The notes under the pieces were generated by a model, which was not told the origin of the DNA, searched no databases, and saw only the letters and a program-made list of their open reading frames with translations. Positions 17,755 through 21,182 of a stretch of 64,000 nt of DNA are shown here, piece after piece (within the stretch, counting starts at the first letter, position 1; each line of letters starts with the position of its first letter). The translations under genes and the position numbers were made by a program. This stretch comes from a virus (lineage: Duplodnaviria; Heunggongvirae; Uroviricota; Caudoviricetes), in IMG/VR virus record IMGVR_UViG_3300014205_000184, positions 3,162 through 67,161 of that record. One strand, given 5' to 3'.

Positions 17755-17964
17755 ATGATTACAGTAAGAGTATGGGAACAGGGCGGAGTTAAAGAAGAAG
17801 TCGAATTGGCAGCAGATAGCACAGTAATGGATGCGTTGAAAAAGGCAGGCGCAAGGACTGATGTTACAAAAGAGATACGTGTTAACAACGAGCCTGCGGA
17901 TAAAGAAGACATAGTAGAGAACGGTGATACAGTATACGTTGTCCCGAATATAGCCGGGAATTAA
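17755..17964 (+). CDS. Ubiquitin-like beta-grasp protein (ThiS/MoaD-like, BilA-like)
   Basis: RBS GAAAGGGA. The 69-aa protein MITVRVWEQGGVKEEVELAADSTVMDALKKAG...IRVNNEPADKEDIVENGDTVYVVPNIAGN has the ThiS/MoaD pattern and ends in AG-N, with the Gly penultimate. Confidence 0.6.
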   Translation: MITVRVWEQGGVKEEVELAADSTVMDALKKAGARTDVTKEIRVNNEPADKEDIVENGDTVYVVPNIAGN

Positions 17965-17990
17965 TTTATATAGTATCCCAGTTACCGGTA

Positions 17991-18036
17991 ATTGGGGAGT
18001 ATACAGATAGTATCTGTGTATTCCCCAATTTTTTCG
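17991..18036 (+). terminator. Intrinsic terminator (18-bp stem plus T6) between the Ubl gene and the E2-like gene, overlapping a 20-bp palindrome
   Basis: The stem ATTGGGGAGTATACAGATA-gta-TATCTGTGTATTCCCCAAT is followed by TTTTTT. It overlaps the palindrome CCCAGTTACCGGTAATTGGG at 17977-17996. Confidence 0.5.
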
Positions 18037-18052
18037 TAAAAAGGAGATTAAA

Positions 18053-19450
18053 ATGCCAGAAGTAACGGTAGAAGGGCTAACTGAATCACCAAAAGAACAA
18101 ATTGATTCAGAAGAAAATGTTGAGAAAAAGGTTAAGCACACTGTAATGGTGACTAATATAGAGGTTTCTGAAGAACTTCTTAAGGTTATAAATAGGTTTG
18201 CTAATAGTATAGACAAAGATATTGAAATTATTGGTATGACATATAATCGTATAAATGATAAGTTTAAACTTGTTGAAGAAGGAAAATTTAGAATTTTCTG
18301 TCCTACAAAACTACCTGAATATGATGTAACTAAGATATATATTCAGTATATTAGTGGCGAAGATGAATCATTAAAAGAAAAAGCACAGTTTGTATCGGAT
18401 GCTATTGTTAATAAGTGGATAAAAGAAACTCCAGCCCAACTAGTTTATTGCCCCAAGAATTATGGCACATATTATGCGTTTTGTATTAAAGATGAGATTG
18501 CGTTTCTTACCGATATAATGTCAACTTCATCAAAAATAAGTAACATTTTTATGATGAAAGAGCTTCTTTGCCATGCTATAAAGAGGTATAAGAAGTATGA
18601 TAAAGAGGCGGCGCTGACTAAACGTGCATTGATTGATAGACGTATCTTAGATGGGTATATGTATTTCATGCGGAATGTTAAATCGAACGCTAGAAATGTG
18701 TATAAATCCCAAATGAATACCATTGAAAACGATATTCATACACACTACCAAGCAATTCTTAAAAAAGAAAAAGAGTTACTTGATACATCAGACCTAGCTT
18801 CTACGGTAGATAAACGTATGAGTAAAAATAAATTAGATTCTGATGAAGTGGCTGTTTCAAAGATGATGGAGCCGCTATTATCTAGTGAAAAATATAAGCT
18901 GTTTGAATACACAAGTTCGGCTATGATAGGATATACTAACCTTATAAAAATAACATATAAGAATAGAGAGTATACTATTGGTGAGTTTAAAATTGTAGTT
19001 GACCTTACTGGTAAAATTACGTTCTATAATTTAACGTCAAGATACCTTGACTATGACCACCCTCATATACATGATAGATACGCATGTTTTGGGAATATTA
19101 AAGAAACAATCACAGACCTAGCAATTAACTATAACTTTATGATGTTATTTACCTTGTTATATGATTATTTAAATAAGTATACAAAACTTGGTGGGTCAAG
19201 ACCATTTGTTCATATAGGATGGTGGGGAGGGTTTAACGAATCAACTTGGTGCATAAACTGTGACGCACCCAAAACTGAATGTATTTGTGAAAATCAAAAT
19301 GCTACAAACGTATGCCCGGAATGTCATAATCACTTGGAGAATTGTTCGTGTAATAGATGCCCATTAAATCGTAGTTTATTATATCGAAATGCACCATGTA
19401 GGGCGTGTGGACACTATCATTCTGGCGATATGAGATGTAATCTATTATAA
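18053..19450 (+). CDS. E2-like (UBC-fold candidate) protein with a large N-terminal domain and a C-terminal Cys-rich zinc-finger tail (BilB-like?)
   Basis: RBS AAAGGAGAT. The region TIGEFKIVVDLTGKITFYNL...DYDHPHIHDRYACFGNIKETITDLAINY resembles the E2 HPN-x(6-8)-C core followed by a hydrophobic helix. The last roughly 60 aa carry CINC, CIC, CPEC, CSCNRC and CRAC pairs. Confidence 0.45.
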   Translation: MPEVTVEGLTESPKEQIDSEENVEKKVKHTVMVTNIEVSEELLKVINRFANSIDKDIEIIGMTYNRINDKFKLVEEGKFRIFCPTKLPEYDVTKIYIQYISGEDESLKEKAQFVSDAIVNKWIKETPAQLVYCPKNYGTYYAFCIKDEIAFLTDIMSTSSKISNIFMMKELLCHAIKRYKKYDKEAALTKRALIDRRILDGYMYFMRNVKSNARNVYKSQMNTIENDIHTHYQAILKKEKELLDTSDLASTVDKRMSKNKLDSDEVAVSKMMEPLLSSEKYKLFEYTSSAMIGYTNLIKITYKNREYTIGEFKIVVDLTGKITFYNLTSRYLDYDHPHIHDRYACFGNIKETITDLAINYNFMMLFTLLYDYLNKYTKLGGSRPFVHIGWWGGFNESTWCINCDAPKTECICENQNATNVCPECHNHLENCSCNRCPLNRSLLYRNAPCRACGHYHSGDMRCNLL

Positions 19451-19474
19451 TATAAAATATCATAAAGGAGATGT

Positions 19475-20509
19475 ATGCGAAAAGCTAATAAGAAAGTTAA
19501 AAAAGAGGAAGTTAACAGTGCTAACGTAACACCAGTTACGAAAAAAGAGTATGAACCCGTTACAATCAAGGATGACGTTGATGAGTTGGATGTAAAAATA
19601 GACGCTGTTTTAGCGAGTGATACAGACAGAAAAATGGAGTCTTCGATAAGAGTAGAAATACCTAGAAAAGTGTATTATCAGTTACGTTCCTATGCAAAGC
19701 TGATAGATGAGGAAATAACTGGGTTAGGGTATGTCGAAAAAATAAATGCGCATACGTTTAGAATAACGGAAGCGTATTTACTCAAACAGATTGTGTCTAG
19801 TGCAAGATGTGAAATAGATGTTGGTGACCAATGTGCGTTAATGGATAGATTAGATAAAGAAGGTAAAGATATACGAAAATTGAAGTGCTGGTGGCATTCG
19901 CATAATTCTATGGGTGCGTTTTGGTCACAGCAGGATAAGTTGACAAGTTCAGATTCCGTATGTGATTATTATATATCATTAGTAATAACTCATAAAGGCG
20001 AAATGCAGTGTAAGGTTGGGATATATCAACCTATCTTTATTGAAATAGATGGTGTAAAAGTTATAATGACAGATGATGAACCCATATTAGAGATTATGAG
20101 TAAATGTATGGATGAAATCAAAGATAAAGTATCAACAGAAAAGAAAGCCCCAATAGTAGTTAATAATTATGCAAATAATTACGCAGACTATTATGGGAAT
20201 AGACATAACTATGGGCATCTTGTGCGTGGTGGCGTGCAACAAGACAGAGAACTTTTCCCCAGTAAGGAAACCGCAAAAGAAACAAAACAAGAAACTATAA
20301 AAGACGGATTAAACGCTAATGATATAGAAAATGTTTTCGGGGAAACATTTACAATGGGCGGTATGACGTTTAGATGGAACAATGAAGTGCAGATGTACGA
20401 TGTGTTCTCCGGTGGAAGAACTCTAACATTAGATGAGATTGAAGCTAATGGGATTATGGATTTAGCTGACCCGTTATCAAAATGTCCCGATATAAGAAAC
20501 GTAAATTAA
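19475..20509 (+). CDS. JAB/MPN+ (JAMM) metalloprotease, deubiquitinase-like
   Basis: RBS AAAGGAGATG. Complete JAMM motif E...HSHNSMGAFWSQQD (HxHx7Sx2D), with a roughly 150-aa C-terminal extension. Confidence 0.7.
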   Translation: MRKANKKVKKEEVNSANVTPVTKKEYEPVTIKDDVDELDVKIDAVLASDTDRKMESSIRVEIPRKVYYQLRSYAKLIDEEITGLGYVEKINAHTFRITEAYLLKQIVSSARCEIDVGDQCALMDRLDKEGKDIRKLKCWWHSHNSMGAFWSQQDKLTSSDSVCDYYISLVITHKGEMQCKVGIYQPIFIEIDGVKVIMTDDEPILEIMSKCMDEIKDKVSTEKKAPIVVNNYANNYADYYGNRHNYGHLVRGGVQQDRELFPSKETAKETKQETIKDGLNANDIENVFGETFTMGGMTFRWNNEVQMYDVFSGGRTLTLDEIEANGIMDLADPLSKCPDIRNVN

Positions 20510-20519
20510 GGAGAATATA

Positions 20520-21182
20520 ATGGTTAACTTATCGCCGAATGTTTACTTACGGCAATTAGACATAATTAGTAAAGAGAAGTTTACATGTCCAATATGTATT
20601 ATAGGAGCAGGCGCTACGGGTAGTTTTGTAGCGTTAGCATTAGCTAAGATGGGTATGAACAAAATCAGTATATGGGATTTTGATAGTGTAGAGGAGCACA
20701 ACTTCCCCAATCAATTGTTTAGATTAAATGATTTAATGGGGTATAAAGCTGAAAGAACGGCTAATATAGTTAAAGACTTCACTGGAATTGATGTAAAGTT
20801 TGAAAATAAGAAATATGAAAATCAGAAACTACAAGGTGTCGTAGTACTCGCAGTTGATAGTATGGATACAAGAAGACGTATATATGAAAATTGCCAAAAG
20901 ACTGAAGATGTTAGTCTAATCGTAGACCCCAGAACTGGTGGTGAAACGTTTAGAATATATACAATAAACCCGCATTCTGCTAAGGACAGAAAATTCTATG
21001 AAAAATACTTATACTCGGATAATGTTGTGGCGCCCATACCGTGTACAGCTCAAGCTATTATATACAATGTACTTGCGGTATCTGCGCTTATATGTAACCA
21101 AATAAAGAGATATTTAATGGCGCAACCATATAATATTGAAATACTCGCAGATACGGGTAATTGTATGTTATTAACAAAATAA
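20520..21182 (+). CDS. E1-like ThiF/MoeB-family adenylyltransferase
   Basis: RBS AAGGAGAAT. Rossmann motif IIGAGATGSFVALALAKMG, DFDSVEEHNFPNQLF (the E1 D-x-D...N..RQ pattern), and a candidate catalytic Cys in PIPCTAQAI. Confidence 0.7.
   Translation: MVNLSPNVYLRQLDIISKEKFTCPICIIGAGATGSFVALALAKMGMNKISIWDFDSVEEHNFPNQLFRLNDLMGYKAERTANIVKDFTGIDVKFENKKYENQKLQGVVVLAVDSMDTRRRIYENCQKTEDVSLIVDPRTGGETFRIYTINPHSAKDRKFYEKYLYSDNVVAPIPCTAQAIIYNVLAVSALICNQIKRYLMAQPYNIEILADTGNCMLLTK

Follow-up and report, generated by a model that had tools for sequence, protein, structure and literature searches.

A candidate ubiquitin-like conjugation cassette in the replication and RNA-repair region of an uncultured tailed phage

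In a 64,000-nt stretch of phage DNA (the window; positions 3,162 to 67,161 of IMG/VR record IMGVR_UViG_3300014205_000184, Caudoviricetes), an earlier note made from the sequence alone had read four consecutive open reading frames (ORFs) as a complete ubiquitin-like conjugation cassette, consisting of a ubiquitin-like protein (Ubl), a conjugating enzyme (E2)-like protein, a JAB-type metalloprotease of the JAMM/MPN+ kind and an activating enzyme (E1). The four ORFs, encoding 69, 465, 344 and 220 amino acids (aa), lie on the plus strand exactly where they had been placed (Table 1), and each of the motifs named for them, HPH-x6-C, HxHx7Sx2D, GxGxxG and DFDSVEEHNF, is present. The motif residues of the enzymes are each invariant across 33–57 homologues, and the motif and family matches of the four ORFs are far beyond chance. 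The phage setting was borne out by neighbouring replication and RNA-repair genes and by an intein-containing methyltransferase gene. The proposed translational coupling of the four genes did not hold, since the intergenic gaps measure 88, 24 and 10 nt and no genes overlap.

Table 1. Features of the cassette and its flanking signals, in window coordinates.
Feature	Position (nt)	Strand	Remarks
Promoter-like site, TTTACA-17 nt-TATAAT with TG extension	17536..17564	+	11/12 matches; consensus match
Ubl, ThiS/MoaD-type beta-grasp, 69 aa, C-terminus ..VPNIAGN	17755..17964	+	Pfam ThiS
Terminator-like hairpin, 19-bp perfect stem, 3-nt loop, then UUUUUU	17990..18036	+	RNA fold
E2-like multidomain protein, 465 aa	18053..19450	+	family unannotated in every library searched
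N-terminal alpha/beta domain, residues 30-151	18140..18505	+	common only to closest relatives
Long helical, coiled-coil-like region, residues 165-277	18545..18883	+	AlphaFold2 model; coiled-coil noise in PDB profile search
UBC/E2-fold core, residues 281-392	18893..19228	+	invariant T295, G310, N326, H336-P337-H338, C345, G347
HPH-x6-C motif, residues 336-345	19058-19087	+	
Cys-rich tail, residues 400-462	19250..19438	+	CxxC-x6-CxC repeated, 11-12 conserved Cys
JAMM/MPN+ metalloprotease, 344 aa	19475..20509	+	catalytic E80, H141, S142, H143, S151, D154 invariant
HxHx7Sx2D motif (H141-S-H143-x7-S151-x2-D154)	19895-19936	+	
Minimal E1, single ThiF-type adenylation domain, 220 aa	20520..21182	+	Pfam ThiF
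E1 GxGxxG (G29-A-G31-A-T-G34)	20604-20621	+	
E1 DFDSVEEHNFPNQ	20676-20714	+	
E1 invariant Cys175	21042-21044	+	

The identity of the 465-aa protein decides most of what can be said about the cassette. No match to it was found in Pfam, PADLOC, PHROGs or NCBIfam, neither it nor the 344-aa protein matched any GenBank phage protein, and in a word-indexed protein search it retrieved itself alone, while its core alignment retrieved nothing. By an exhaustive HMMER scan, 358 cluster representatives were recovered at E ≤ 1e-3 and 57 at E ≤ 1e-10. These relatives share a core at about residues 200–390, and HPH-x6-C is invariant in 57/57 homologues. An AlphaFold2 model calculated with the family alignment (predicted local distance difference test, pLDDT, 85.8; 64–80 in the Cys-rich tail) places the motif in a domain of one helix, a beta-meander and further helices (residues 265–392), which is the arrangement of the UBC-RWD-UEV fold (alpha1, four-stranded beta-meander, C-terminal helices). 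Compared by hhalign with four canonical E2s (UBE2D2, yeast Ubc9, UBE2N and UBE2L3, their sequences entered by hand), the core alignment matched over 126 columns with 89.5% probability and E=2e-6. Helix 1 and the 'GxF.I.I' strand were paired, HPH was aligned with HPN and C345 with the catalytic Cys; the Asn of HPN is thus replaced by His. The earlier note had made its assignment hinge on a UBC-like fold, and such a fold, with HPH..C aligned to the E2 active site, is what was found. The protein is probably a divergent E2, predicted to be active, with His in place of the HPN Asn. Outside the core, the N-terminal alpha/beta domain is a candidate target-recognition module, and the Cys-rich tail probably forms tandem zinc knuckles, metal binding being a prediction.

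The third protein carries a catalytic set that is conserved in 33/33 homologues. As a single sequence it remains below the Pfam Prok-JAB cut-off (E=7.6e-4, 19.8 bits vs 25), and no function is assigned to about residues 180–344, its C-terminal half. The family profile, searched against PDB, matched Rpn11 (E=9e-10), then archaeal Rpn11-like proteins and CSN5 (9e-10 to 1e-4 across the three); the archaeal structures 6fju/6fjv were among the best matches, at about 1e-9 to 1e-8. Cap3 and Bil names were absent among the matches at E ≤ 0.01. With its motif intact, the catalytic set complete and its profile closest to the deubiquitinases Rpn11 and CSN5, the protein is the JAMM/MPN+ protease it had been taken for.

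The fourth protein matches Pfam ThiF (E=3.3e-16) and phrog_15670 (E=3e-21), in agreement with a ThiF/MoeB-type E1. R11, G29, G31, D53, D55, N61, K76, D113, R118, R138 and Cys175 are invariant in 38/38 homologues, and the adenylation residues of the E1-like superfamily, ATP-binding and Mg-binding ones among them (G29, G31, D53, D55, N61, Q65, K76, D113, R118) are invariant or nearly so. Against PDB, the family profile found E. coli ThiF (2e-16), PaaA (2e-14), Uba1 (5e-14), MccB and UBA5 (both 1e-13) and, similarly, UBA3. Since ThiF, Uba1, MccB, UBA5 and UBA3 are matched about equally, its sequence places the protein at least as near to true E1s as to sulfur-carrier enzymes. A rhodanese domain, an inactive adenylation domain (IAD), a second adenylation domain, a catalytic-Cys (CYS) domain and a ubiquitin-fold domain (UFD) are all absent from it. 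Cys175 is located 62 residues past D113, beyond the end of the PDB alignments of the profile; this spacing presumably resembles that of ThiF C184 and MoeB C187.

For the smallest protein, a ThiS/MoaD-type beta-grasp was confirmed by a Pfam ThiS match above the gathering cut-off (E=7.4e-5, 23.7 bits vs 22.5), along with weak matches to NCBIfam ThiS and MoaD, and the ..IAGN end named in the earlier note is also present. Gly68 is invariant among homologues. In an in-register alignment Asn69 occupies the position of their second Gly, the bacterial homologues ending in ..VPKI(K/R)GG. Cassettes without JAB have Ubl tails of exactly GG (n=5) or GGR (n=2). Among cassettes with JAB, the window and its closest relative (L006, see below) end in ..GN, the bacterial locus L057 in GG plus 11 residues, and L060 in plain GG; L008, whose contig stops before any JAB gene, ends in ..GNN. 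As most JAB-containing cassettes have tail extensions, the tails fit the earlier suggestion that JAB is the processing enzyme which exposes the Gly. The part of that suggestion which fits less well is the register, because trimming an Asn that replaces the second Gly would give a tail one residue shorter than that of the homologues. Processing is plausible; alternatively, the Asn end may be used as such.

Such a use would be made of it in MccB-like chemistry, in which the E1-family enzyme activates the terminal Asn69 to a succinimide or peptidyl-nucleotide end and the product is a modified protein, not a conjugate. MccB substrates end in Asn. The Ubl and two phage relatives also do so where homologues have Gly, and the E1 profile has MccB (1e-13) and PaaA (2e-14) among its best matches in PDB. 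We nevertheless consider this chemistry highly improbable: the E1 is without the peptide-clamp domain that MccB and PaaA have at the N-terminus, homologues ending in GG use the same E1, E2 and JAB families, and the GNN end of one relative suits trimming better than activation of the last residue.

The Ubl gene is set apart from the enzyme genes by its flanking signals. A promoter-like site with a near-consensus extended -10 lies in the 228-nt gap on its 5' side; across the region such sites are no more numerous than expected from shuffling, and the site is treated as a lead only. Between the Ubl and E2 genes, the 88-nt gap contains a terminator-like hairpin (-33.8 kcal/mol, z = -6.8; 0/200 shuffles equally stable), followed on its 3' side by an AGGAG ribosome-binding site for the E2 gene. 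In the closest relative, the proteins of which are 36–53% identical, a hairpin of unrelated sequence is found at the same place (L006:5930-5985, z = -4.0); thus, its position is kept and its sequence is not. The hairpin suggests attenuated read-through into the enzyme genes, and together with the promoter-like site it forms an arrangement that would yield more Ubl than enzymes.

Relatives of the cassette were found in several groups of phages. L006 (IMG/VR 3300037067_004901, a 105-kb viral contig), the closest cassette-bearing relative, has the same Ubl-E2-JAB-E1 order. Four more viral contigs carry E1 directly 3' of the E2-like gene, and JAB was detected in three of them. GenBank phages were reached through E1 only, namely Flavobacterium phage FpV4 and its relatives, crAss-like phages and Xanthomonas jumbo phages. 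In FpV4, cr128_1, ΦcrAss001, DAC15, cr111_1 and cr106_1, a protein of 395–445 aa (Y-M-H-S-H..C-x-G) is followed by a JAMM protein and then by a ThiF protein. This unit, gp78-gp77-gp76 in ΦcrAss001, sits between the primase and uracil-DNA glycosylase genes, and its members are labelled 'hypothetical', 'metalloprotease domain containing protein' and 'thiamine biosynthesis protein' in the GenBank entry of ΦcrAss001. Aligned by hhalign with the E2 core of the window, the 395–445-aa family gave 87.7% probability and E=3.4e-6, HSH falling opposite HPH and the two Cys opposite each other; directly against the canonical E2s it gave no signal, and is therefore tied to E2s only transitively, through the family of the window. 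In Xanthomonas phage PhiXhv-12, an 892-aa protein beside the ThiF gene matches the E2-like family with the motif HPHM-x13-CLGS (E=2e-10 in a single-sequence search, 1.9e-7 in a search of all fetched loci); JAB was not detected beside the E2-like/E1 pair of the Xanthomonas jumbo phages. The DNA of the window region had no nucleotide match in GenBank phages.

Three observations on these phage loci are added here. First, the acidic 90-aa ORF that follows E1 in the window (21192-21464) had been suggested as a fifth component. Neither the closest relative nor any other locus has it, and as no homologue adjoins any other cassette, it was rejected as a conserved member; in L006 a homologue of the window ORF 21597-21872 comes after E1 in its place. 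Second, the gene 5' of the E2-like gene in ΦcrAss001, gp79 (L020:3211-3888), has homologues in L003, L004, L021 and L022. The proteins share about 90 N-terminal residues, which end in K-(I/V)-K/R-S-G and show a beta-grasp-like pattern, followed by a variable tail. They had no Pfam match, and hhalign against the Ubl alignment was not significant (E=0.056); the gp79-like protein could be a Ubl precursor. Third, about 650 nt 3' of its cassette, L006 carries a second module (L006:9866-13242), of which the window has no counterpart. It encodes a phosphoribosyltransferase (PRTase)-like protein (QRPTase_N E=1.6e-7), a 243-aa JAB, a 208-aa ThiF, a 230-aa protein and a 71-aa ThiS ending in ..SGGSF, followed by RtcB, and it contains no E2-like gene. 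It may represent a second Ubl system or else a pathway of the sulfur-carrier or Qbs type.

The cassette is not confined to phages. A degenerate DNA pattern for YDHPH-x6-C-x-GN recovered 59 bacterial loci, of which 56 hold true family members. Most of these are in metagenome-assembled genomes (MAGs) of Candidatus Methylomirabilota (NC10), and others are in Anaerolineae, Nitrospinae, Ignavibacteriales, Chitinophagaceae and Gammaproteobacteria. Wherever the flank is long enough (56 genome loci and five further viral contigs), JAB and/or E1 lies directly 3' of the E2-like gene, and in the bacterial loci a GG-ending Ubl often follows 3' of E1. In the flanks of three bacterial loci we found genes for a GntR regulator, UDP-glucose dehydrogenase, HD phosphohydrolase, transporters of the major facilitator superfamily and hydrolases; given these ordinary chromosomal genes, the three loci are not prophage-like. 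NC10 MAGs (among L024-L082, e.g., L026/L024, L076/L032, L050/L055) typically have two family loci per genome, one with E2-JAB in which E1 was not detected (nine loci with enough flank), the other with E2-E1-Ubl and a GG-ending Ubl. This pattern is suggestive of a split system or of paralogues, set in an ordinary chromosomal context. On a 7.6-kb contig binned as Gammaproteobacteria (L057:2483-7463), the order is Ubl-E2-E2-JAB-E1, i.e., that of the window with a duplicated E2-like gene.

From these results we are confident that the four proteins are a Ubl, an E2-like protein, a JAMM protease and an E1. The invariant association of a Gly-ended beta-grasp protein, an E1 with an invariant Cys, a UBC-fold protein with HPH..Cys and an Rpn11-like isopeptidase argues for a Ubl conjugation cascade. 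That the cassette does conjugate its Ubl to proteins is, on balance, the explanation we favour, its chemistry and targets being deduced from these homologies. A number of observations weigh against it. Foldseek found no match with the full 465-aa model. The sequence profiles of the family matched no E2 in PDB or Pfam: the whole-family profile gave only coiled-coil noise against PDB sequences, and 0/78 family members matched UQ_con or any Prok-E2 Pfam model at E ≤ 0.1. An alternative for HPH and Cys is a metal site or a Cys-His hydrolase dyad. The E1 has neither a UFD nor a catalytic-Cys domain with which to recruit an E2. The Ubl has no di-Gly end, and with Asn in register with the homologues' second Gly its mature C-terminus is uncertain. 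Finally, the best family matches of both Ubl and E1 appear to be the sulfur-carrier proteins ThiS and ThiF.

The last point leads to a sulfur-carrier pathway, in which the ThiS/MoaD-like protein would be adenylated by the ThiF-like enzyme and become a thiocarboxylate, donating sulfur, for instance to tRNA, DNA or a small molecule. JAB would trim the carrier as QbsD does, or free the product as Mec+ does with CysO, and Cys345 would serve as a persulfide relay. Apart from the ThiS/MoaD and ThiF/MoeB matches, the minimal MoeB/ThiF size of the E1 speaks for such a pathway. Triads of JAB, ThiS and ThiF with C-terminally extended carriers are an established theme (Iyer 2006, PMC1779556), the second JAB-ThiF-ThiS module of a related phage includes a PRTase-like gene but lacks an E2, and a role in tRNA modification would suit a phage with many RNA-repair genes. 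However, the partners expected of such a pathway are missing. Linkage to sulfur-carrier genes had been named in advance as what would tell against conjugation, and genes for rhodanese, cysteine desulfurase, PP-loop ATPase or PP-loop thiolase, MoaE, ThiG or CysM were found neither in the cassette and the rest of the window nor in the Pfam-annotated flanks of three homologous loci. Moreover, the invariant partner is a UBC-fold protein with HPH..C aligned to the E2 active site, and the nearest matches of the JAB profile are the deubiquitinases Rpn11 and CSN5. A sulfur-carrier pathway is consequently regarded as unlikely. The known systems of this type (ThiS-ThiF, MoaD-MoeB, CysO-Mec+, QbsCDE) resemble the cassette in the sequence families of Ubl and E1 and in having a JAMM peptidase alongside a carrier whose C-terminus has a short extension. 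They differ from it in that the cassette is always accompanied by the invariant E2-fold Cys protein and has a JAB closest to deubiquitinases. Membership in this group was rejected for want of a linked donor or acceptor enzyme and of a rhodanese domain in the E1.

Among prokaryotic conjugation systems, the nearest in layout is Bil, to which the earlier note had likened the cassette. The likeness in gene set and order stands: Bil, a bacterial antiphage operon, also consists of Ubl, E2, JAB and E1 in this order (PMC11601596). Both have a Cys-based E2 and no separate ligase (E3), the Bil E2 being proposed to choose its targets itself (PMC11601596; PMC10557695). The likeness does not extend to the architecture of the enzymes. 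BilD is built as IAD-AAD-CYS, with an inactive and an active adenylation domain in tandem (IAD and AAD) and a mobile catalytic-Cys domain (PMC11601596), whereas the E1 of the window is one ThiF domain of 220 aa. The E2 of the window differs in combining an alpha/beta domain, a coiled coil, a UBC core that keeps the His-Pro of HPN, and a Cys-rich tail, and its 465-aa family has no Pfam, NCBIfam or PADLOC model. Further differences are that the Ubl is a single 69-aa ThiS-like domain and that the cassette is encoded by a phage, among replication and RNA-repair genes, rather than serving bacterial antiphage defence. Bil protein names were absent among the best 60 of 70 PDB matches of the E1 profile, and PADLOC returned only generic CBASS (cyclic oligonucleotide-based antiphage signalling system) E1/JAB models for the cassette. 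Because its E1 lacks the IAD-AAD-CYS architecture, the cassette is not a Bil member. We take the operons designated '6d' to be the later Bil family. Their E2-like proteins were described as being without the classical His (Iyer 2006, PMC1779556).

The ubiquitin system of Caldiarchaeum (Ub, E1, E2, small RING E3, Rpn11-like JAMM) is similar in its compact operon, single-domain Ubl, Cys E2 with a classical-type His-Pro motif and Rpn11-like JAMM. It differs from the window in its separate RING E3, in place of which the window has a Cys-rich tail fused to the E2. In the window, furthermore, UQ_con does not recognise the E2, the Ubl sequence resembles ThiS and not ubiquitin, and the E1 is much smaller. 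Bub (6E/DUF6527) is likewise a prokaryotic conjugation operon of Ubl, E1 and E2 (with or without JAB), and BubCD is a weak PDB match of the E1 profile (E=2e-7). Bub forms Ser/Tyr oxyesters, uses no catalytic Cys, has fused Ubl-E2 or E2-E1 proteins and includes the DUF6527 serine protease; it was rejected in view of the invariant Cys345 and Cys175, the separate genes and the absence of a DUF6527 match in the cassette. In Type II CBASS, Cap2 is an E1-E2 fusion which conjugates the CD-NTase rather than a Ubl. This assignment was rejected as well, since only the E1 domain matches Cap2 models, no CD-NTase occurs in the Pfam tables of the window and there is no effector. PRTRC (Iyer 2006 type 6b) was discarded because PRTRC_ThiF reached 38 bits against a cut-off of 145 and PRTRC_A 17 against 102, and because there is no ParB gene in the cassette. 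The sole phage pairing of Ubl and JAB in the literature searched is that of the lambda/T1 tail-assembly Ubl (TAPI) with the JAB-NlpC protein K (Iyer 2006, PMC1779556). It is a processing pair of the tail module without E1 or E2, while the cassette of the window is in the early/replication region and has both. A phage-encoded Ubl-E1-E2 cassette, or this E2 family, is not described in the full-text literature searched, subscription-only papers being outside its scope, and a comparative-genomics paper on jumbo phages makes no mention of such a cassette.

We judge it more likely than not that the cassette is a phage-encoded module for Ubl conjugation, and that its expression comes from the early/middle region (replication and RNA repair) of an uncultured phage of at least 130 kb. 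In such a module, the modifier would be produced in excess from the Ubl gene between the promoter-like site and the hairpin, and the enzymes would be made by read-through. The Rpn11-like JAMM would trim the C-terminal Asn, exposing Gly68, and could later strip the Ubl from its targets. The minimal E1, presumably a homodimer with Arg11 acting in trans, would adenylate the Ubl C-terminus and possibly hold the Ubl as a thioester on Cys175; both steps are suggested by conserved residues. The Ubl would then be handed to Cys345 of the E2-like protein, a residue placed by fold and alignment in an E2 active site, and be transferred to target lysines without a separate E3. The lineage-specific N-terminal domain, the coiled coil and the Cys-rich zinc tail of this protein could select the target. 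Since the cassette is located in the replication/early module in three unrelated phage groups, host or phage proteins would be modified during infection rather than in virion assembly, which points to defence, replication or proteostasis factors as candidate targets.

If defence proteins are the targets, conjugation is compatible with another role, i.e., that the phage copies mainly disturb a host Ubl system, be it a homologous bacterial cassette or Bil. JAB would strip the host Ubl off phage proteins, and the other components (GN-ended Ubl, E1 and E2) would serve as decoys or competitive sinks instead of modifying targets productively. Homologous cassettes do occur in bacterial genomes, the three checked being in ordinary chromosomal context, and related bacterial Ubl systems are antiphage (PMC11601596). 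In addition, the terminal Gly is changed to Asn in the phage lineage alone, as might be expected of a dead-end substrate, and the window also contains a Gad2-type anti-defence gene. Yet all catalytic residues of E1, E2 and JAB are kept in the phage copies, so the enzymes look functional and not like decoys, and the cassette is retained in very different phage groups (crAss-like, FpV4-like and jumbo phages without a detected JAB). Interference as the main role is therefore rather improbable in our view, and a working conjugation module is preferred.

To our knowledge, the only prokaryotic Ubl conjugation demonstrated to date is the kind that bacteria turn against phages (Bil, Bub, CBASS Cap2/3). 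What is new here is a phage-carried cassette of the known prokaryotic Ubl-conjugation type, with an unannotated E2 family and a minimal E1, which is also widespread in bacteria. The broader proposition is evenly poised: tailed phages, including ΦcrAss001 (gp76-78) and FpV4, would encode and use a complete Ubl cascade to tag host or phage proteins, and an undescribed chromosomal counterpart would exist in bacteria (NC10). Phages may well tag proteins as eukaryotic cells do with ubiquitin. If this is true, the bacterial conjugation systems Bil, Bub and CBASS would have in the cassette their first counterpart from a virus, and Ubl tagging would let viruses of bacteria, too, rewrite proteomes, as eukaryotic viruses do when they hijack ubiquitin. 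A further outcome of the analysis is an E2 family, large (358 clusters) and unannotated, with the classical His-Pro..Cys layout and His for Asn; its pairing with the smallest kind of E1 bears on how the E1-E2 cascade evolved from ThiS/ThiF. As homologous cassettes are present in ΦcrAss001 and FpV4, phages with cultivable hosts, the question is directly testable by genetics and proteomics.

The window itself is a run of same-strand ORFs with 29–39% G+C (most 2-kb windows 32–35%) and strong positive GC skew; contigs of its uncultured phage reach 130 kb (JGI 3300037067, SRR6484325). The neighbours of the cassette are those of a phage early/middle region. They include peptide deformylase, an intein-split N6/N4 methyltransferase, a RuvB-like ATPase, a Gad2-like protein, RtcB, a CCA/polyA polymerase, an RNA ligase, SNF2, a primase-MCM fusion, Thy1 and a deoxynucleoside monophosphate kinase. 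The DNA methyltransferase (23604-25439; Pfam Intein_splicing and N6_N4_Mtase) has a homing-endonuclease-like insert inside its intein. The ORF at 33521-34204 matches Pfam Gad2, an anti-Gabija counter-defence family, and adjoins RlaP (34415-35386) and a DUF5131 protein (32848-33540). The RNA-repair set is made up of the RtcB ligase, the CCA-adding/polyA polymerase with an HD domain and the RNA ligase (36498-37805, 38534-39547 and 44917-45789, respectively), and a NUMOD3-type endonuclease ORF is found at 35840-36517. A 1030-aa fusion at 50890-53982 combines a DnaG-type zinc ribbon, a Toprim primase and an MCM helicase domain. At about 61900-64000, GC and AT skew flip sign and ORFs lie on the minus strand (61940-62728, 62973-63932), which indicates a boundary between divergent transcription modules.

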